This document shows, piece by piece, positions 9,255 to 63,987 of a stretch of DNA of 64,000 bases (within the stretch, counting starts at the first letter, position 1; each line of letters opens with the position of its first letter). Origin of the DNA: Rickettsiales bacterium (GTDB lineage: Bacteria > Pseudomonadota > Alphaproteobacteria > Rickettsiales > UBA1997). Under the pieces are notes generated by a model that saw only the letters and a program-made list of their open reading frames with translations, did no database searches and had not been told where the DNA came from. The position numbers were made by a program, and so were the translations under genes. The stretch covers positions 78,112 to 142,111 of the forward strand of contig JAGWYT010000001.1 in assembly GCA_018969185.1 (NCBI GenBank). Reading direction: 5' to 3'.

Positions 9255-9735
9255 GTCATCCCAATAGGGAGATCACTGCCTCTGGCGGGGGACTAACCAA
9301 GGTTTGGCCTATGCGTAAGTATTTAATTTATTAATATTTTTTACTTTTTACTTACGTGTCATCCTGAGCCTTAGAATTTGTTTTACAAATTCTTGGCGAA
9401 GGATCTCATGTGTTTTGAGTTTTTTTTAAATTTGCAAAAAGAATTTTGTTTAAAGTTGCATGAGATCCTTCTCTCACAGTCACTAGAAGTGACTGTAGAG
9501 CTCAGAATGACAGTGTAATGAATTTAATTTTTAATAAGAATTAAATTTAGTTTATTTTTTAGGATTCGTTCAAAACAAACTCAGAACAAATCCCATTATT
9601 TCGTTAACATAAACCGCCTTCTGGCGGTTCATAAACATAGCTCCAGCTTCGTTGGGGGTAATTGACCCTTGATTTTACGAAGTAAAATCAAGTATCTTAT
9701 GCGTTTTAGGGAAGAGATCCTATTTCAAGGATGAC
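9255..9735. repeat. ~480-bp gene-free nest of palindromic elements (PE-A units nested inside an outer PE-A pair)
   Basis: Outer pair: GTCATCCCAATAGGGAGATC (9255-9274) and GAGATCCTATTTCAAGGATGAC (9714-9735). Inner inverted pair: 9358-9410 and 9459-9511. There are further AT-rich and GC hairpins at about 9525-9560, 9615-9632 and 9668-9692. Confidence 0.75.
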
Positions 9736-17639: not shown

Positions 17640-17726
17640 TTATCCGCTGGTTGAGCGAAGTCGAAACCAAGGATAAAATTATTCCAAAGCTTCTCTTGGT
17701 TTCGACTTCGCTCAACCAGCAAGAAG
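17640..17726. repeat. PE-C palindromic element, copy 1 (reverse orientation)
   Basis: GCTGGTTGAGCGAAGTCGAAACCAAGG...CTTGGTTTCGACTTCGCTCAACCAGC. It lies between the adaptor and pump genes of the RND operon. Confidence 0.85.
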
Positions 17727-28826: not shown

Positions 28827-30103
28827 ATTATGGTATATAGATCATTCACTAAAACTTCTTTCTTCTCACCAGTTTTTCTATTTTTCATTTCAACCATATT
28901 AGCAGCAGCACTTTTTGGACCAATAATAATTTGTGTTGGAATGCCAATTAAATCCATAACAGCAAGCTTTTGACCAAGCCCAGCTTTAGTATCATCATAA
29001 ATAACATCAATATTTTTTTCTTTTAATTTAGAATAAATTTCTTCACAGAATTTATCGCAAAGTTCATCACCTTGTTTTACATTTACTAAAGCAATTTTGA
29101 AAGGTGTAAGAGCATCAGTCCAGATAATTCCCTTATCATCGTGATTTGCTTCAATTGCTGCAGCAACAACTCTTGAAACACCAATGCCATATGATCCCAT
29201 ATTAGGATAGATCGGGGAGGAGTTTGACCCCATTACTGAGGCTTCCATGGCTTTAGAGTATTTCAAACCGAAATTGAAAATATGTCCAACCTCAATGCCA
29301 CGGCGTGAAGCAATTTGCGTTTCAGAAATTGGACATTTTTCTGGCACATGCATTTCGTCAGCCATAGCATATAGGCTTTGCATAGCAGCAATATCAAGAG
29401 TTTTCGATTCAGAAAGTTCATCAAATTTTTTATCATAATAAATTGCACTTTCTCCTGTATCGGCAAGTAAGTGAAATTCGTGAGATAAATCTCCACCAAT
29501 TGCACCGGTGTCAGCGCGCACCGCCATTGGCTTTAAACCCATTCTTCTAAAAATCTTAAAATAAGTTTCATACATTAAATTATAAGTTTTTTTTGCAGAA
29601 ACCTCATCAAGATCAAAAGAATAAGAATCTTTCATTAAAAATTCACGGCCGCGCATTAAACCAAAGCGCGGGCGAATTTCATCACGAAATTTCCAATGAA
29701 TTTGATAAAGATTTTTTGGTAAATCTTTGTAAGAAGTAATGTTTTTTCTAAAGATATCAGTAATCACTTCTTCATGAGTTGGGCCGTAGAGAATGTCGCG
29801 ATCATGACGATCTTTAATACGTAACATTTCCTTACCATAAGCATCATATCTGCCAGATTCCTTCCATAATTCTGCTGGTTGAATTGTTGGCATCAAAACT
29901 TCAAGAGCACCTGATTTATCCATTTCTTCACGAATAATATTTTCAACTTTTCGCAAAACTTTTAAGCCCAAAGGAAGCCAAGTGTAAATGCCTGATGCAG
30001 TCTGGCGAATCATGCCAGCACGCACCATCAATTGATGCGATTTGATTGTGGCATCAATTGGATTTTCTTTTAAAGTTGGAAGGAAATATTGTGAAAGTTT
30101 CAT
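28817..30103 (-). CDS. proS: prolyl-tRNA synthetase (short form without the editing insertion)
   Basis: 428-aa ORF with MKLSQYFLPTLKE and class II motifs. The final codons and the TGA stop (complement of 28817-28826) lie inside the PE-A element. Confidence 0.9.
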   Translation of the reverse strand: MKLSQYFLPTLKENPIDATIKSHQLMVRAGMIRQTASGIYTWLPLGLKVLRKVENIIREEMDKSGALEVLMPTIQPAELWKESGRYDAYGKEMLRIKDRHDRDILYGPTHEEVITDIFRKNITSYKDLPKNLYQIHWKFRDEIRPRFGLMRGREFLMKDSYSFDLDEVSAKKTYNLMYETYFKIFRRMGLKPMAVRADTGAIGGDLSHEFHLLADTGESAIYYDKKFDELSESKTLDIAAMQSLYAMADEMHVPEKCPISETQIASRRGIEVGHIFNFGLKYSKAMEASVMGSNSSPIYPNMGSYGIGVSRVVAAAIEANHDDKGIIWTDALTPFKIALVNVKQGDELCDKFCEEIYSKLKEKNIDVIYDDTKAGLGQKLAVMDLIGIPTQIIIGPKSAAANMVEMKNRKTGEKKEVLVNDLYTIMSS

Positions 30104-36835: not shown

Positions 36836-36843
36836 AAAACTCC

Positions 36844-36956
36844 GTCATCCTGAGCATTACAATCGCTTTTAGCGATTGTTTGCGAAGGATCTCTTAACAG
36901 CCGCACGAGATCTTTCGCTAAGATTTTCTAGAAGAAAATCTATAGCTCAATATGAC
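36844..36956. repeat. PE-A full element (two inverted units plus spacer)
   Basis: GTCATCCTGAGCATTACAATCGCTTTTAGCGATTGTTTGCGAAGGATCTC ... GAGATCTTTCGCTAAGATTTTCTAGAAGAAAATCTATAGCTCAATATGAC. Confidence 0.85.
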
Positions 36957-36988
36957 ACTTGCTTAACCAAAAAATAATTTTTTAAACT

Positions 36989-38122: not shown

Positions 38123-38619
38123 AGTACCCATTTATCAGTTTTGTTTTAGCCATTTTTATTCTACTTTCTTTGTTTTTTTTATCTTTCTTAAAAAAACGTG
38201 AAGTTATTATGCCTGCAACTATAGAGATAGATGCAACAATGATTGAAGAGGTTTCTGAAAAAAGATCTGAAGCAAAATTTGATGATGGTTATATCAAAAA
38301 AAATGCAGAAAAAAAAGAGAAGATCCTGAAACAAGTTCAGGATGACAAGAATAATAATTCAGATTCGCAAAATAAAGTTTTAGTGAAATATGGACCTTTG
38401 CCAAAAATTCCTGATCACTTACGCGATGAGGCATTTAACAGTTTTGCCATTGCACGTTTTTATATTAATGAAGATGGTTCAGCAAGAGCTGAATTAATCA
38501 AGCCTTGTACCAATCCTGAATTAAATTATTTGCTATTGAAGAGTTTGCAAAAATGGAAATTTGCTGAATCTAATAAAGAATCAATTCAGGATATTAAGGT
38601 GAATTTTACTGTGGAATAG
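38119..38619 (+). CDS. tonB: TonB-like energy transducer (short), with a PE-A unit in the linker
   Basis: 166-aa ORF with ATGA overlap to exbD, an N-terminal TM segment, a charged linker and a C-terminal domain (ARFYINEDGSA...KWKF). Confidence 0.6.
   Translation: MKYPFISFVLAIFILLSLFFLSFLKKREVIMPATIEIDATMIEEVSEKRSEAKFDDGYIKKNAEKKEKILKQVQDDKNNNSDSQNKVLVKYGPLPKIPDHLRDEAFNSFAIARFYINEDGSARAELIKPCTNPELNYLLLKSLQKWKFAESNKESIQDIKVNFTVE
38319..38346. repeat. single PE-A unit inside tonB
   Basis: GAAGATCCTGAAACAAGTTCAGGATGAC has the same core as the units at 620-695. It is translated as KILKQVQDD. Confidence 0.7.
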
Positions 38620-39181
38620 CTCTCTTAAGGAAAAAGCCAATTACAAAAATCAGTCCTAAACAATAAATCACATTCCATCCCGCCATTGAAACGCCTAAAA
38701 ATATAAATGCAGGCTCATCACATTTAATGGCTTTAGTATTGTTGATGGCAATTTTTAATTCTTCAAGATCAGTAATTTCATTTAAATTTTGTGAGGCTGA
38801 ACAAGTTGTTGGGCCTTTGAATATCTTATTTTCAACGCCAACATGATAAGAGGCAATTCCAATATTGATGAGTAGTAATAGAGCACAAAGATAAATTGAG
38901 ATTTTTTTAAATTTTTCAGATTTAAAAAATATTAAAGTAAGTGAGGTGAGGGCAATAATTGCAAAAAATGGCTTACGCTGATAAAAGCACAAAACACAAG
39001 GCTGCATATCAAAAACATATTGTGAAATATATGCGAAGCACAGTGCTGCTATTGATGAGATGAGGAGAAATAAGTTTACTATCTTAAGAGATCCTTCGCT
39101 ACGCTCAGGATGACACCACGAACTGTCATCCTGAGCGTAGCGAAGGATCTCTTGTTGTTTTTGTTCAGACTTGCTTATCAT
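38606..39181 (-). CDS. dsbB: DsbB-family disulfide oxidoreductase with a repeat-derived N-terminal extension
   Basis: 191-aa ORF with PCVLCFYQR (DsbB CxxC) and four TM segments. Residues ~10-32 (EILRYAQDDSSWCHPERSEGSLK) are translated from PE-A at 39087-39153. The start overlaps the pgi stop. Confidence 0.7.
   Translation of the reverse strand: MISKSEQKQQEILRYAQDDSSWCHPERSEGSLKIVNLFLLISSIAALCFAYISQYVFDMQPCVLCFYQRKPFFAIIALTSLTLIFFKSEKFKKISIYLCALLLLINIGIASYHVGVENKIFKGPTTCSASQNLNEITDLEELKIAINNTKAIKCDEPAFIFLGVSMAGWNVIYCLGLIFVIGFFLKRAIPQ
39087..39153. repeat. PE-A element, two minimal inverted units
   Basis: AAGAGATCCTTCGCTACGCTCAGGATGAC ... GTCATCCTGAGCGTAGCGAAGGATCTCTT. Confidence 0.85.
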
Positions 39182-49324: not shown

Positions 49325-49351
49325 GTAATTCACATTTATTGGTTTTTTTAG

Positions 49352-49437
49352 CTTCTCGCGCCTTGAGCTTATCGAAACAAAGAAAAGCTAAATATAAATC
49401 TTATTCTTGGTTTCGACAAGCTCAACCAGCGAATAAG
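49352..49437. repeat. PE-C palindromic element, copy 3 (left arm degenerate)
   Basis: CTTCTCGCGCCTTGAGCTTATCGAAACAAAGAAAAG...CTTATTCTTGGTTTCGACAAGCTCAACCAGCGAATAAG. Confidence 0.75.
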
Positions 49438-49453
49438 ATTTATATTACCCATA

Positions 49454-49500
49454 TTGACATTTGTCAAAAAAATGACATATTATTAAAAAATGACATTTTT
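49454..49500 (+). promoter_or_regulatory. candidate vapBC promoter/operator
   Basis: The palindrome TTGACATTTGTCAA carries a consensus -35 (TTGACA, 49454-49459). TATTAT lies 18 nt downstream. Two further AATGACAT repeats start at 49471 and 49489, just upstream of vapB. Confidence 0.4.
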
Positions 49501-53093: not shown

Positions 53094-53137
53094 AATTAAA
53101 TAAAAGTAATTGTGCACCTAATATGACTGGTGAATTG

Positions 53138-53224
53138 TCTTTTTTCTGGTTGAGCTTGTCGAAACCAAGAAAAGACAAAAATGAACTTATCCTTGGTTTG
53201 TCACAAGCTCAACCAGTGGATAAA
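53138..53224. repeat. PE-C palindromic element, copy 4
   Basis: TCTTTTTTCTGGTTGAGCTTGTCGAAACCAAGAAAAGA...CTTATCCTTGGTTTGTCACAAGCTCAACCAGTGGATAA. Confidence 0.85.
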
Positions 53225-53278
53225 TTCATTTTTACAGTTATGTGGAGTGCAATTTTTTAACAACACACCACAATCACC

Positions 53279-56318: not shown

Positions 56319-58569
56319 GAGTTCAATTTTAGGTCTAAGTTGGCAACAAAAAGATTATGACGAACGCTTGGCAATGGCGATTGCTCAAAGATTTGAACTG
56401 TCTCAAGTTTTAGCAAAATTAATTGCTGAACGTGAAATTTCATTAGATGAAATTGAGAATTTTTTAAATCCTAAAATAAAAACTAATCTTCCTGATCCAT
56501 TTACTCTTCTTGATATGAAAGAAGCGTTAGAGCATGTGATTGACGCCATTAAGAAAAATAAAAAAATTACAATTTTTGCGGATTATGATGTTGATGGTGC
56601 AACTTCATCAGCTTTGTTAAAAAGATTTTTTCGTGAAATTGGTGTTGATGTTTCAATTTACGTGCCAGATCGTATCTTGGAAGGTTATGGACCAAATGTT
56701 AATGCCTTGCTTAATTTAAAAAAATCAGGCACTGATTTAGTAATTACAGTTGATTGCGGAACTGTGTCTTTTGAGCCGTTAGAAGAAGCAGCAAAAGCGA
56801 ATTTAGATATTATTGTAATTGATCATCATATTGGAGTTACTGAAAAACCAAAGGCTTTGGCAGTGATAAATCCTAATCGTATTGATGAAAATTTTCCTCA
56901 TAAAAATATTTGTGCGGCAGGAGTGAGCTTTCTTTTTGCTGTTGCAATTAACAAAGCTTTGCGTGATGAAGGATTCTACTCCAGCGCAATTACTCCCCCC
57001 TTGAGGGGGAGTCGGCATGCCGAAGGCATGCCGGTGGGGGATCAAAATCTTTCAAAAGCAACTAGATTTTACTCCAAAGAAACCCTAGAAAAAGCAAAAG
57101 AGCTAAAAGTTAACCAAACAGATGCTGAGAATCTACTCTGGTATTATTTGCGAGATAAACAGTTAGATGGACATAAATTTAGAAGACAGCAAGCAATTGA
57201 TAATTACATTGTAGATTTTGTTTGTTTAGAAAAGAAGTTGGTTGTTGAGCTTGATGGTGGTCAGCATAGTGAAGATAAGGCTATAAAATATGATCAGAAT
57301 AGAACAGAGTTTTTGAATAAGAGTGGATTCAATGTTTTAAGATTTTGGAATGATGAGGTATTTAAGAATATGGAAGGTGTTTTGGATTCGGTGTTTTTTA
57401 ATTTAAATTATAACCCCTCCCCGAAGCTGCCTTTGGCAGCTTCGACCCTCCCTCAAGGGGAGGGTAAAAGACGTGAACCAAATTTATTAAATCTTTTAGA
57501 TCTTGTTGCACTTGGAACGGTTTGTGATGTGATGCCGCTAATAGGCTTAAATCGTGCTTTAGTGGCGCAGGGTTTAAAGATTATTAAGAATAGAAGTAAT
57601 TTAGGAATTCGCACAATTTGTGATTTAGCAGGTTTAAATGAAGAGCCAACTGCTTATCATTTAGGTTTTGTTATTGGACCACGAATTAACGCTGGCGGAA
57701 GAGTTGGTAAATCAGATTTGGGTGCAAGAATTTTATCAAGTGAAGATGAGGAAGAGGTGCAAAAAATTTCCTTGCAGTTAGAAGAATTTAACAAGCAGCG
57801 CAAGGATATTGAAATTCAAATTCAAGAAGAAGCACAAAATAATTTAGAAAAATCAATTGGTGGTTTTAGCATAAATGATTCAGTGATTTTTGCTGTTTCA
57901 AACTCTTGGCATCAAGGTGTGATTGGCATTGTGGCATCACGAATCAAAGATCTTTACAATAAACCAGTTGCAGTAATTACAGTTAAAGATGGAAAAGGGA
58001 AAGCATCATGCCGTTCAATTAATGGTGTTGATTTTGGTTCGGCAATTTTACAAGCAAGATTGGAAGGCTTGTTAATTGATGGCGGAGGGCATGCCATGGC
58101 GGGAGGATTCTCAGTTTTAGAAGAAAAAATTCCTGAGTTACATAAATTCTTTAATAAAATTTTGGGCGAAAAAATTATAGAATTTTCTTCAAAAAGAGAT
58201 ATGTTTTTTGCTGCAGAACTTGACTTAGCTCAAATAAATATTGAATTGATAAAAGACTTGGAAAAGCTTGAACCATTTGGTATGGGCAATTCTAAACCAA
58301 AATTTATTATTCGTGATTTACAAAAAGTAAGAGCAAATTTAATTGGTAAAAATCAAGATCATATTAGCTGTATTTTTTCATCTAAAACGGCAATTGGTTT
58401 TAGTGGAAATTTACAAGCAGTTGCTTTTAGAGGTGCGAATAGTCCTTTAGCAGAAATTCTTTTAGATCCAAAATTTACTAAACCAATTAATGTGGCTGGA
58501 CAGTTGAATATTAATTCTTGGATGGGAGTTGAAAAGGTACAATTATTAATTGAGGATATTTTGATTTAG
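56305..58569 (+). CDS. recJ: single-stranded-DNA-specific exonuclease RecJ carrying an in-frame ~165-aa DUF559/palindrome insertion
   Basis: 754 aa against ~577 aa in E. coli. DHH motifs are present ([16 protein letters not shown]). The sequence is collinear with E. coli RecJ on both sides of the block at 56991-57465 (...ALRDEGFY | insert | [23 protein letters not shown]...). The DHHA1 motif GGHAMAGG is present. Confidence 0.9.
56991..57465 (+). mobile_element. DUF559 (Vsr-like endonuclease fold) cassette flanked by inverted PE-D palindromic units
   Basis: Left unit 56991-57043: CTCCCCCCTTGAGGGGGAG + CGGCATGCC-GAA-GGCATGCCG + GTGGGGG. Right unit 57412-57465: AACCCCTCCCC-GAAGCTGCC-TTTG-GCAGCTTC-GACCCTCCCTCAAGGGGAGGGT. 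The two have the same layout in opposite orientation. Core: [60 protein letters not shown]...[12 protein letters not shown]. Confidence 0.7.
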
Positions 58570-61511: not shown

Positions 61512-61562
61512 TTTTTTTTATTAATCATTTTTTTGTAGTTGTAAATTGATTGATTTATTAAA

Positions 61563-61648
61563 CTTCTCGCTGGTTGAGCTTGTCGAAACCAAGAGAAGTT
61601 TTGTAAAAATCTTATTCTTGGTTTCGACAAGCTCAACCAGCGAACAAG
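61563..61648. repeat. PE-C palindromic element, copy 5
   Basis: CTTCTCGCTGGTTGAGCTTGTCGAAACCAAGAGAAG...CTTATTCTTGGTTTCGACAAGCTCAACCAGCGAACAAG. Confidence 0.85.
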
Positions 61649-61658
61649 ATTACAATCA

Positions 61659-62642
61659 CTAATTTTTTAATAAGAAATTTCTTTTTATATCATGAACCCT
61701 AATAAAATCTACATTCTTCTTTATAAGATATTTAGAAATAACAAGAGTTTTATTTGCTCTATCTGGAGGCTGTTCCCAAACTACGCAAGGTAATAACGAG
61801 CTTTTTGCCTCATCTCGTGGCTCTTTTGATGCATCTGACTTCGGAAAATTTTCTTCAGATAATTGCATATCTGAAGAAAATTGTTTCTTGTCATCTGCAC
61901 AAAATAGCCTACGATCTGAGGTAAAAAGTTTGGGAACAGGCTCCAACTCTCCCATTTCAGAAAAATCAATGGCATCAAGAAAACTTTTTTTAGAATGTCC
62001 AACATAAAGTGGCAATCCTAAAACTCTAAAGGCATCGATGTTTTTTAAAATACGAATTGATTGCAAAGAATCTTTGCCAAAACCAATTCCAACATCAAAA
62101 ATCAATTGTGATTTTTTAACGCCTTTTTGCATCAGATAAGAAATTTTTTCTTGTGCCCATTTAATAATTTCGTCAGTCAAATTTAAATGTCTATTAATTA
62201 ACGTTCCTTCAACTGCTGGCACAGATAGATTATGCATCAAAATGGTTGTGATATTATTTTTGGCAATAAATTCAATGGTGCGATCATCAATTAAACCATC
62301 AACATCATTAATAATATCAACACCATTTTCAAAAGCTTTTTTGGCAGTTTCAAAGTGACGAGTGTCAATGCTGGTGGTAACTTTCTTACCAGTTTTTTGA
62401 TTAAAATTTTTTACTTCTGAAGTTATTGCTGGCAGAATTTTTTCTAATCTTTTCCATTCTTCTTCTGTGCTTACGGGTGTAAATCCAGGGCGGGTTGATT
62501 CAGCACCAATATCAATCATATCAGCGCCGTCATTTAACATTTCTTTTAGATGAGTAATGGCATTATCAAGCGAAGTGAATTTCCCACCATCGGAAAATGA
62601 ATCAGGAGTAATGTTTAAAATACCAACAATTTTTGTGGGCAT
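61659..62642 (-). CDS. folP: dihydropteroate synthase with an in-frame ~60-aa palindromic insertion
   Basis: 327 aa against 282 aa in E. coli. It has GILNITPDSFSDGG, IDIGAESTRPG, DVGIGFGK, VGHSKKSF and IRVHDI. About 70 aa lie between SKKSFLD and DRANKTLV, where E. coli has about 8. Confidence 0.85.
   Translation of the reverse strand: MPTKIVGILNITPDSFSDGGKFTSLDNAITHLKEMLNDGADMIDIGAESTRPGFTPVSTEEEWKRLEKILPAITSEVKNFNQKTGKKVTTSIDTRHFETAKKAFENGVDIINDVDGLIDDRTIEFIAKNNITTILMHNLSVPAVEGTLINRHLNLTDEIIKWAQEKISYLMQKGVKKSQLIFDVGIGFGKDSLQSIRILKNIDAFRVLGLPLYVGHSKKSFLDAIDFSEMGELEPVPKLFTSDRRLFCADDKKQFSSDMQLSEENFPKSDASKEPRDEAKSSLLPCVVWEQPPDRANKTLVISKYLIKKNVDFIRVHDIKRNFLLKN
61771..61938. repeat. 168-bp palindromic element inside folP (family unassigned)
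   Basis: Terminal inverted repeat TGTTCCCAAACT (61771-61782) / AGTTTGGGAACA (61927-61938). Central palindrome GAAAATTTTCTTCAGAT-AATTGCAT-ATCTGAAGAAAATT. 168 nt equals 56 codons. Confidence 0.7.
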
Positions 62643-62667
62643 AAATTTCTACTAATTTACTTTTAAT

Positions 62668-62800
62668 AACCCTCCCCTTGAGGGAGGGTCGACGAACAAG
62701 CTTTGCTTGTGAGTCGGGGAGGGGTTATAGTTTTTCAAAAACCTAATTTTACCCCTCCTCGAAGCTGCTAAAGCAGCTTCGATCCTCCCTCAAGGGGAGG
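62668..62800. repeat. inverted pair of PE-D units separated by only ~24 bp (cargo-less version of the recJ cassette)
   Basis: 62668-62726: AACCCTCCCCTTGAGGGAGGGTCGACGAACAAGCTTTGCTTGTGAGTCGGGGAGGGGTT (reverse orientation). 62751-62800: ACCCCTCCTCGAAGCTGCTAAAGCAGCTTCGATCCTCCCTCAAGGGGAGG (forward). The forward unit has the same inner hairpin stem (GAAGCTGC/GCAGCTTC) as the right unit in recJ. Confidence 0.8.
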
Positions 62801-62829
62801 ATAATTGGACCGAAATAAATAAAGAAATT

Positions 62830-63987
62830 CTACCACTTCTTTTCAAACTTTTTTCTTAAAATAACTGCAATCAAATTAAACAAAATCAGCATTGCTAAAA
62901 GCACCAAAATTGCGGCGGCAGTTTTTTCAGCAAATCCTGCTTCTGGGCTGTCAGACCATAGATAAATTTGTACAGGAAGAACGGTAGTAGGATCAGAAAA
63001 ATTTTGAGGAATATCAGCGATGAATGCAACCATACCAATCATCAAAAGTGGTGCGGTTTCGCCTAAAGCGCGTGAAATTGCTAAAATTGTTCCTGTCATA
63101 ATTCCCGGTATTGAAAGCGGTAATAAGTGATGCAAAACAATTTGCATTTTTGAAGCGCCAAGAGCCATCGCGCCATCTTTAATTGTTTTTGGAATTGAAC
63201 GAATTGTGTTGCGCGTTGCAATAATAATTACTGGTAAAACAAGCATGAATAAAGTCATGCCGCCAACCAAAGCTGAAGAGCGCGGCAGATAGAAAAATTG
63301 TAAATAAACTGTTAAACCAAGAAGGCCGTAAATGATTGAAGGAATTGCCGCCAAGTTATTAATACTGATTTCAATGATGTCAGTGATTTTATTTTTAGGA
63401 GCAAATTCTTCTAAATAAAAAGCGCACATTATGCCAATTGGAAAAGCGAGGCTTAAGAAAATTAACATCACTAAAATTGAACCTTTTAAACCAGCGCCAA
63501 TACCAGCAATTTCAGGTTCTCTTGAATCAGCGAATTTAAAGAAATTCCAATTTATTATAGTTTTTATTTTTTGATTTGAGATTAATTTTTCAGCTAAAAT
63601 TATTTGTTTTTCGCTTAGAGATGATTTTTCTTTATGTTTGAAATAAATGTCGAATTTTGAAGAGGTGCTAAGCCAAAAATTATTTTTACTACCAATTAAT
63701 TCTTGGCGTTTTTCGATTTGATTTCTCAATTCTAAAGCTGCGATTTTACTGGTTATTTGATATAAATTATTAACATCAGCAAGTTCAACTATTTCAGGAA
63801 ATTCTTCACGCAAAGATTGTTTTATAAGACGACGATAATTTATTTTTTCAATTAATTCAGCCTTTGATAATGTTGAAATATCTTTTAATTCAAGATCAGA
63901 ATTTTTGGCAATTGATTCTGCACTTAGGTCAATGTTAAGTGAAACTTCATGACGTAAAAAAGAGCTATATCCTTTAGTTATCAGCAT
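62830..63987 (-). CDS. pstA: phosphate ABC transporter permease PstA
   Basis: 385-aa ORF with a long N-terminal extension and the C-terminal permease core (NLAAIPSIIYGLLGL, ISRALGETAPLLMIG). The last 20 nt of the window read as the overlapping 3' end of an upstream ORF, probably pstC; that is too short to call. Confidence 0.85.
   Translation of the reverse strand: MLITKGYSSFLRHEVSLNIDLSAESIAKNSDLELKDISTLSKAELIEKINYRRLIKQSLREEFPEIVELADVNNLYQITSKIAALELRNQIEKRQELIGSKNNFWLSTSSKFDIYFKHKEKSSLSEKQIILAEKLISNQKIKTIINWNFFKFADSREPEIAGIGAGLKGSILVMLIFLSLAFPIGIMCAFYLEEFAPKNKITDIIEISINNLAAIPSIIYGLLGLTVYLQFFYLPRSSALVGGMTLFMLVLPVIIIATRNTIRSIPKTIKDGAMALGASKMQIVLHHLLPLSIPGIMTGTILAISRALGETAPLLMIGMVAFIADIPQNFSDPTTVLPVQIYLWSDSPEAGFAEKTAAAILVLLAMLILFNLIAVILRKKFEKKW

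Follow-up and report, generated by a model that had tools for sequence, protein, structure and literature searches.

What occupies the interval between folP and pstA in a Rickettsiales bacterium? The interval lies in a 64-kb stretch of AT-rich DNA (33.5% G+C; contig JAGWYT010000001.1, positions 78,112 to 142,111), referred to here as the window. With a probability of roughly 60%, the folP-pstA spacer is read here as one of a family of selfish palindromic cassettes, non-coding and without cargo, with a history of deletion and homing-like spread. In a complete cassette of this family, a small gene that encodes a DUF559 nuclease, a Vsr-like PD-(D/E)XK protein, is enclosed by two inverted arms. 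One complete copy is found within the recJ gene of the same window, where it is translated in-frame as a nested domain. The reading builds on the anatomy of the element, its membership in the family, insertions that are polymorphic at folP-pstA as well as at recJ, a nuclease under purifying selection, and repeated occupation of one site in recJ, all of which are observed.

The element fills the whole intergenic spacer and is 187 nt long. It is composed of an AT-rich outer arm, a two-hairpin unit, a central spacer, a second unit in inverted orientation, and another outer arm. The inverted repeat extends ~27-29 nt past each outer hairpin, making the entire spacer one palindrome with 43-nt arms that are 77% complementary. 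As single-stranded DNA, positions 62643-62829 fold at -51.4 kcal/mol (z = -10.4). The 187 nt contain no open reading frame (ORF), and no T-run follows the hairpins. The left unit begins with the outer hairpin CCCTCCCCTTGAGGGAGGG (62670-62688), continues into an inner hairpin with TCGA and TCG on its flanks (62689-62716), and ends in the G-run GGGGAGGGG (62716-62724). The right unit has the C-run CCCCTCC (62752-62758), the inner hairpin TCGAAGCTGCTAAAGCAGCTTCGA (62759-62782), and the outer hairpin TCCTCCCTCAAGGGGAGGA (62783-62801). The outer arm on the folP side has a homologous extension in other records, TTTATTTCATTCGGTCTAATCAT in L201 and CTCGATCTAATCA in both L284 and L053.

A preliminary description of this DNA had proposed two inverted two-hairpin units between folP and pstA, with the same relative orientation as a pair of units in recJ. 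Both units are present, and a covariance model places the two pairs in identical orientation. The same description gave the spacer as ~24 bp and the element as 62668-62800. Those 24 nt do sit inside the spacer, but its length from run to run is 27 nt; likewise, the units are real but the element is larger, with the palindrome reaching the limits given in Table 1.

Table 1. Positions in the 64-kb window of the folP-pstA element, its flanking genes, and the recJ cassette (R1 is the covariance model of the unit).
Feature	Position	Strand	Basis or remark
folP	61659..62642	-	Start codon adjoins the element
pstA	62830..63987	-	Stop codon adjoins the element
Entire folP-pstA intergenic spacer, cargo-less palindromic element	62643..62829		Inverted repeat, DNA fold, and 2-8 nt orthologous spacers
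AT-rich outer arm, folP side, AAATTTCTACTAATTTACTTTTAATAA	62643..62669		Imperfect inverted repeat of 62802-62829
Left unit, "reverse" (whalefall-1 orientation on the + strand)	62667..62724	+	R1, 61.7 bits, E = 2e-14
Central AT-rich spacer TTATAGTTTTTCAAAAACCTAATTTTA, 27 nt, putative remnant of the cassette 5' end	62725..62751		Anchored alignment to 57041-57071
Right unit, "forward"	62752..62804	-	R1, 70.9 bits
AT-rich outer arm, pstA side, ATAATTGGACCGAAATAAATAAAGAAATT	62802..62829		Conserved relative to L201
recJ, host gene, 754 amino acids	56305..58569	+	Insert-free relatives 591-596 amino acids
Left cassette unit in recJ, divergent copy	56990..57041	+	R1, 58.7 bits
Cargo: DUF559 (Vsr-like PD-(D/E)XK nuclease) coding segment, in-frame with recJ	57042..57413	+	Pfam PF04480, PDB 3HRL
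Right cassette unit in recJ	57414..57467	-	R1, 73.5 bits

Units of this family were detected with the covariance model and an nhmmer profile; a stricter regular-expression finder missed CCTCCCC variants. The covariance model has exactly four matches in the 64 kb, with scores of 58.7-73.5 bits and E-values of 1e-13 to 1e-17. The matches are 56990-57041(+), 57414-57467(-), 62667-62724(+), and 62752-62804(-), which form two like-oriented pairs with zero singletons. Within the window, the copies of the unit are thus these two pairs. The 17-mer CCTCCCTCAAGGGGAGG occurs three times (57447+, 62671-, 62784+), where 0.03 occurrences are expected from shuffles.

Each arm of the family runs from an AT-rich end through a conserved CCCTCCC..GGGAGGG hairpin and a variable second hairpin with TCGA flanks to a G-run. 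No part of the family varies more than the inner stem, and a compensatory double change is observed at each of its five variable pairs in 8-15 of 26 aligned units. The right unit at folP-pstA and the right unit in recJ have the inner stem GAAGCTGC/GCAGCTTC in common, as the preliminary description had noticed. Together with the excess of the 17-mer and the E-values of the covariance model, this common stem is similarity beyond generic G/C hairpins. Kinship of the folP-pstA pair with the units flanking the recJ cargo, as one kind of element that here has no cargo, is well supported.

The cassette in recJ provides the coding partner. Its left unit has the outer hairpin CTCCCCCCTTGAGGGGGAG at 56993-57011, followed by an inner hairpin and the G-run GGTGGGGG. 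Amino acids 260-367 of RecJ are DUF559 (Pfam PF04480, E = 2e-40; PDB 3HRL, E = 1e-27), and the only Pfam matches of the cargo are DUF559 and REase_MTES_1575. The ORF is continuous throughout the insert, which has no intein or intron matches in Pfam or Rfam. Compared with the cargo of L283, the nuclease has a pN of 0.11 and a pS of 0.62 (dN/dS of about 0.09). Such strong purifying selection suggests that the recJ nuclease is functional.

Occupation of recJ was surveyed in the best 120 RecJ homologues. A DUF559 cassette is found at the identical RecJ loop in 12 of these, with inserts of 153-192 amino acids, and the loop is 4-8 residues in about 100, the empty alleles. Two further alleles are cargo-less. 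P0050 (L280) has a 63-nt remnant in the loop, made up of an outer, an inner, and an outer hairpin and read as 21 codons in-frame, and P0093 has a solo right unit only. The loop shows a decay series from full cassette to 63-nt remnant to solo unit. On a RecJ tree with the insert masked, filled alleles are scattered, each beside empty sisters; for instance, the filled P0002 and P0003 are surrounded by near-identical alleles that are empty (P0015-P0024). The RecJ hosts of P0002 and P0003 are 98% identical and their DUF559 only 85%, and some distant hosts carry more similar cargo, so that host and cargo divergence are decoupled. This pattern in recJ resembles homing to a specific site more than it does transposition at random.

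Other inserts and neighbours of the RecJ loop were also noted. P0075 and P0078 have unrelated inserts of 44-50 amino acids at the same loop (window 56985-57470), which is either a hot spot or a permissive site. The recJ DNA of L282 (empty) and L283 (filled) is 93-95% identical overall, a value that drops to about 80-85% over the 60-100 nt that flank the insert on each side. This local divergence could be a co-conversion tract or a weakly constrained loop. An rve-family integrase of the insertion sequence type is found near ilvD-recJ in an insert-free relative (L294 2394-3206, L295 945-1757), with no apparent link to the units.

The cassette is not confined to recJ. In L284 (768-3929), a class-I aminoacyl-tRNA synthetase contains an in-frame DUF559 that is 76% identical to that of the window and is bounded by arms of the same kind. 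L285 and L286 (1275-3956) have a DUF559 that is 62-67% identical, in-frame in PriA just upstream of the Walker A motif. These PriA records are labelled Brachyspira and "bacterium RGIG8805", i.e., non-alphaproteobacterial. When DUF559 loci were picked by protein similarity alone, hairpin units with a G-run or C-run were found beside the gene at 9 of 10 loci, including records from Legionellaceae, Oxalobacter, Fulvimarina, and Pseudaeromonas. A protein search with DUF559 only listed free-standing homologues (P0121-P0240) and not the nested ones. At least 42 of these 120 have unit-derived tails such as PSPxPLPQGEG.

The free-standing genes have features of their own. The close homologues P0121-P0240 are mostly found on contigs of about 1-2 kb, which is expected if the DUF559 gene, together with its arms, is repeated in many copies at which metagenome assemblies break. 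L053 (1457-2401) has a free-standing DUF559 between two complete doublets, which are direct repeats of ~175 nt each. A single ORF of 314 amino acids reads across both doublets and the nuclease.

Turnover is also observed at the folP-pstA site. The element is absent from L120, L123, and L205 (PstA 67-75% identical), where 2-8 nt separate pstA and folP. L201 (PstA 84% identical) has a doublet at the orthologous site with homologous outer arms. Its outer hairpins and G-runs are identical to those of the window, and its inner hairpins and spacer differ. The pstA DNA of L201 is only about 80% identical to that of the window, and the outer hairpins are nonetheless identical. L200 is close to L201 (pstA 96.5% and folP 92.6% identical at the DNA level); its spacer is shorter and has one different small hairpin unit. 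L294 has another solo unit, and L124 has unrelated repeats. The tally for the site is the window and L201 filled, L200 and L294 with other elements, and L120, L123, and L205 empty. Comparison of orthologous spacers, a check proposed in the preliminary description, has thus found presence, absence, and replacement. The aligned sequences indicate that the spacer is a site of repeated gain, loss, or replacement, near-identical genomes included. In L121 (5099-5400) and L202 (4099-4309), the pstA-folP spacer is made up of tandem copies of an unrelated ~100-nt repeat.

Paired units are common in other genomes. A scan for the 19-mer CCCTCCCTCAAGGGGAGGG, using one genome per species, found at least 119 loci. 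Among the matches listed, which is the basis of all the counts that follow, the loci are mostly from Alphaproteobacteria (Acetobacteraceae, Rhizomicrobium, Micropepsaceae, and Rickettsiales-like metagenome-assembled genomes), with few from other phyla. Of 44 close pairs of the exact 19-mer, 40 are (-,+) like those of the window and are spaced 63-147 nt. Three exact pairs spaced 425-492 nt contain DUF559. The census with the hidden Markov model profile has 93 units, and 31 of 35 neighbour pairs are in the orientation of the window, which bears out the pairing and orientation that the preliminary description had asked about. The inner gap of those 31 pairs is 12-67 nt in 30 and 399 nt in one, and the 27 nt of the window fall within the main mode. 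One metagenome-assembled genome from Acetobacteraceae has near-identical doublets, spaced 76-78 nt, at a minimum of five loci (at least 5), which points to recent copying.

The preliminary description held that the cassette is or was mobile rather than a one-off fusion. Patchy recJ alleles, remnants, the copies in tRNA synthetase and PriA, turnover at folP-pstA, and doublets elsewhere all agree with it, and a mobile or recently mobile recJ cassette is well supported by the sequence comparisons.

Whether the folP-pstA doublet once held cargo depends on its central spacer. The whole 27-nt spacer was aligned at the unit boundary to the 31 nt with which the interior of the recJ cassette begins (57041-57071), and 21 of 27 positions matched (TTATAGTTTTTCAAAA--ACCTA-ATTTTA versus ATCAAAATCTTTCAAAAGCAACTAGATTTTA). 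The anchored alignment scores 10, compared with a null mean of 4.2-4.5 (standard deviation about 2), giving a p of about 0.01-0.015 that allows for three cassettes, two ends, and two orientations. The matching 5' stretch of the recJ cassette encodes ..SKATRFY.., and at the protein level cassettes conserve it. A coding remnant in a non-coding doublet argues for cargo loss rather than later gain. In several Rhizomicrobium doublets, the spacer opens with GGGG-TCATG or GGGG-CATG and resembles the sequence at the DUF559 start codon of full copies; this and the decay series in the recJ loop also favour loss of cargo. The preliminary description had compared both ends of the spacer with the interiors of the recJ units; the whole spacer does align to the left interior, but the likeness at the right end is without separate support. 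Its proposal that the nuclease core was lost by internal deletion gains from the match at p of about 0.01, though the opposite polarity remains a live rival. An internal-deletion origin of the folP-pstA copy is modestly supported.

In the history proposed here, the folP-pstA copy would derive from the cassette lineage now in recJ. Apart from about 30 nt at the 5' coding end, its interior would have been lost, giving an arm-spacer-arm structure. The DUF559 nuclease may cut DNA at or near the arms or at empty target sites, and repair of the break by copying from a filled copy would result in homing-like gene conversion. A role in making breaks is proposed for DUF559, which lies in the VSR/DUF559 PD-(D/E)XK clade together with the homing endonuclease I-Bth0305I (PMC3424549; PMC3239194). 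The arms, roughly 55-85 nt, could act as portable homology, and rare ectopic events would seed new sites. Deletions between or within arms would generate doublets, three-hairpin remnants, and solo units. Empty doublets may persist, be copied or converted in trans, and decay on to solo units.

Several points weigh against this history. Cleavage, excision, and insertion by DUF559 are steps that we infer from sequence, and to our knowledge PD-(D/E)XK nucleases alone do no strand transfer. At the folP-pstA boundaries (TAG|AATTTCT ... AGAAATT|T ATG), no direct repeat separable from the palindrome marks a target-site duplication; in recJ, empty and filled alleles differ in their loop residues, which bears on the same matter. 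The looser local alignment of the spacer to cassette ends is borderline (p = 0.06-0.09). The spacer of the L201 doublet differs from that of the window and has no significant similarity to cassette ends (p about 0.4). Units are rare in AT-rich relatives, with none found in L120-L127, L200, L202-L205, L282, L294, or L295, and proliferation in the lineage of the window is low. Lastly, the units face the other way (forward-gene-reverse) in PriA (L285, L286), in L053, and in the whalefall contigs described below. With such variable arrangement, DUF559 and the units may be separable modules.

A first alternative is that the doublet is primary. The doublet would be an independent palindrome of the REPIN or Rickettsia palindromic element type, spreading by other means and never with cargo. 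DUF559 would then be a secondary homing-type parasite that targets the repeats, and the recJ cassette a later-invaded doublet. Empty doublets do far outnumber filled ones, and the position of DUF559 varies. It is between the G-run and the C-run in recJ and the tRNA synthetase. In PriA and L053 the gene is enclosed by outer hairpins, and in L053 it also has a whole doublet on each side. The doublet of L110 and the filled cassette of that genome belong to different unit subfamilies, which fits separate modules; for the same reason, a comparison of the two says nothing on polarity. The unrelated palindromic inserts of P0075 and P0078 would make the recJ loop simply permissive. However, a spacer that resembles DUF559 coding sequence is unexpected in a doublet that was never filled, and doublet spacers elsewhere begin like the DUF559 ORF. 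No other candidate mobilising gene was noticed beside doublets. Moreover, the recJ-loop remnants P0050 and P0093 lie among filled relatives, with P0050 sister to the filled P0025. On balance, a doublet-first origin is unlikely, though it has to be taken seriously.

A second alternative is that the spacer is a structure selected by the host. It would be a small RNA of the whalefall-1 type, or a stabiliser, attenuator, or terminator of the mRNA between pstA and folP, and the likeness to the recJ flanks would be that of a common functional RNA motif. Whalefall-1 (Rfam RF01762) was described as a non-coding RNA motif, a likely small RNA, known only from a whale-fall metagenome and was rated "certainly RNA" by its authors (Weinberg et al. 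2010, PMC2864571). All four window units match positions 1-56 of the 56 in the whalefall-1 model. The scores are 27.9 bits for folP-right (62751-62804, -), 15.4 bits for folP-left (62667-62726, +), 29.7 bits for recJ right, and 19.5 bits for recJ left, all below the gathering threshold of 37 bits. The window units co-align with three whalefall-1 seed sequences, with covariation of the inner stem. In both, the first hairpin is C-rich/G-rich, the linker is short (TCGA or CAGA), and the second hairpin is variable and covaries. A purine-rich tail is also found in both, GGGUGAGG in whalefall-1 and GGGGAGGGG in the window.

The published whalefall flanks, too, show an inverted partner, about 50 nt away from the whalefall copy, whereas the pair in the whalefall contigs is forward-spacer-reverse. 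Whalefall-1 has been described without a link to DUF559 or DNA mobility. The comparison suggests that the whalefall-1 motif is one arm of such an element, and a role at the DNA level is argued from the inverted pairing and the in-frame translation.

The full-length, sub-threshold matches, the strong covariation of the inner stem, the very stable fold, and the outer hairpins kept between the window and L201 despite the divergence of pstA would all suit a host-selected structure. Such a structure is nevertheless missing from the orthologous spacer in most relatives and is replaced in a 96%-identical genome. Since units are always inverted pairs, any transcript would contain the unit once in sense and once in antisense. 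In RecJ, tRNA synthetase, and PriA, such units are translated in-frame, the hairpins have no T-run after them, and every score is under the Rfam threshold. A host-selected structure is accordingly improbable. A generic terminator and a bona fide small RNA are ranked low on the same features: no T-run, inverted pairing, in-frame translation, and sub-threshold scores.

Chance likeness of generic G/C-rich hairpins in an AT-rich genome, which has only the low complexity of the motif in its favour, is ruled out for practical purposes by three exact 17-mers against 0.03 expected, by the E-values of the covariance model, and by an identical composite architecture in dozens of unrelated genomes.

The reading of the folP-pstA spacer as a cargo-less cassette can be extended, more tentatively, to the whole DUF559 family. 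DUF559 proteins would be the nucleases of an unrecognised class of selfish cassettes with inverted two-hairpin arms. These cassettes would home into recJ, priA, and tRNA synthetases and stay translated as nested domains, intein-like but non-splicing. They would also seed intergenic sites and shed their cargo to form REPIN-like doublets that are acted on in trans. Whalefall-1 would be one arm and a DNA feature, not a small RNA gene. A full-text literature search, within the searchable papers, found none that links DUF559, COG2852, or PF04480 to palindromic repeats or mobility. The pattern of a widespread, hairpin-bounded cassette that carries DUF559 and has empty derivatives appears to be new.

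Few uncharacterised nuclease families are as common as DUF559/COG2852, whose members are routinely given the erroneous annotation "very short patch repair endonuclease". If the extension is correct, selfish mobility would be a biological role for this family. It would also explain why PSP..PLPQGEG-type tails are frequent on DUF559 proteins and would account for the many small GC-rich "hypothetical" peptides in alphaproteobacterial genomes. An orphan Rfam motif would be reinterpreted as the terminal repeat of a DNA element. In practical terms, metagenome assemblies break at these elements, domain architectures are inflated by them (RecJ-DUF559, PriA-DUF559), and they could lead functional annotation astray.

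The window has other palindromic repeats as well. A second family, GTCATCCTGAGC...GAAGGATCTC, is found at 9357-9516, 28705-28827, 36839-36957, 38304-38348, and 39086-39167, often as inverted pairs. A third family, TCTTGGTTTCGACAAGCTCAACCAGCGA..., is found at 17660-17706, 26338-26444, 49334-49455, 53121-53242, and 61545-61670. The last of these copies is just downstream of folP and has sub-threshold Rfam matches of the hairpin/miRNA type at 61523-61686. FolP itself is 327 amino acids in the window and 264 in L294, and the gene contains an internal inverted repeat with arms at 61801-61861 and 61868-61928. This repeat is probably another in-frame palindromic insertion.

Among known systems, small non-coding elements that form hairpins include bacterial miniature inverted-repeat transposable elements (MITEs), e.g., the Correia elements of Neisseria, the GC clusters of organelles, and the double-hairpin elements (DHEs) of Allomyces. 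DHEs and GC clusters also have a modular two-hairpin build and occur in association with mobile endonuclease ORFs and in-frame insertions. Like a MITE, the folP-pstA element is small and non-coding, has terminal inverted repeats, and has termini in common with a larger coding partner, the recJ cassette. No transposase was identified for it, and its nuclease family and hosts differ from those of MITEs, DHEs, and GC clusters. The preliminary description had called the element a MITE-like non-autonomous derivative. The inverted termini, the lack of coding, and a recJ partner that shares the arms agree with this name, but that partner encodes a Vsr-like nuclease and not a known transposase. Strict MITE status is not established.

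Rickettsia palindromic elements (RPEs) were reportedly described by Ogata et al. in 2000 and 2002. RPEs are palindromes of 100-150 nt in AT-rich alphaproteobacterial genomes, both intergenic and in-frame in surface loops of essential proteins, and the present elements resemble them in this. The units are placed in this way between genes here and in-frame in recJ, tRNA synthetase, priA, and the P0050 remnant. We know of no gene carried by RPEs and of no nuclease associated with them, and the cassette differs in having a nuclease partner. The likeness to RPEs drawn here is one of palindromic form and placement.

In REPIN/RAYT systems, doublets of repetitive extragenic palindromic (REP) sequences are mobilised by a REP-associated Y1 tyrosine transposase, the RAYT. 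These systems are said to have been described by Nunvar in 2010 and by Bertels and Rainey in 2011. The likeness lies in a replicative unit of two inverted hairpin repeats around a short spacer, in genomes with many doublets that are empty, and in a single small gene flanked by the same repeats. The flanked gene, however, is a DUF559 PD-(D/E)XK nuclease and not an HUH/Y1 transposase. RAYTs are typically single-copy and vertically inherited, whereas the cassette is in-frame in housekeeping genes and patchy between strains.

The remaining comparison is with Vsr-like (EDxHD) homing endonucleases such as I-Bth0305I, inteins, and free-standing homing endonuclease genes (PMC3239194, PMC2677866, PMC3424549). 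The likeness is that of the recJ partner, not of the empty doublet, since it is the recJ nuclease that belongs to the VSR/DUF559 clade. Unlike these elements, the cassette has no intron or intein, and the insert stays translated as a nested domain. It also differs in its inverted hairpin arms, its cargo-less derivatives, and its unrelated sites (recJ, tRNA synthetase, priA, and intergenic). Like a homing cycle, it occupies one precise recJ site in a gene of DNA metabolism, is patchy among near-identical alleles, and has degenerate and empty states (filled alleles, 12; remnants, 2; empty alleles, about 100). If the extension to DUF559 as a whole is correct, such cassettes would be a nuclease-based counterpart to RAYT/REPIN and a non-splicing counterpart to inteins.

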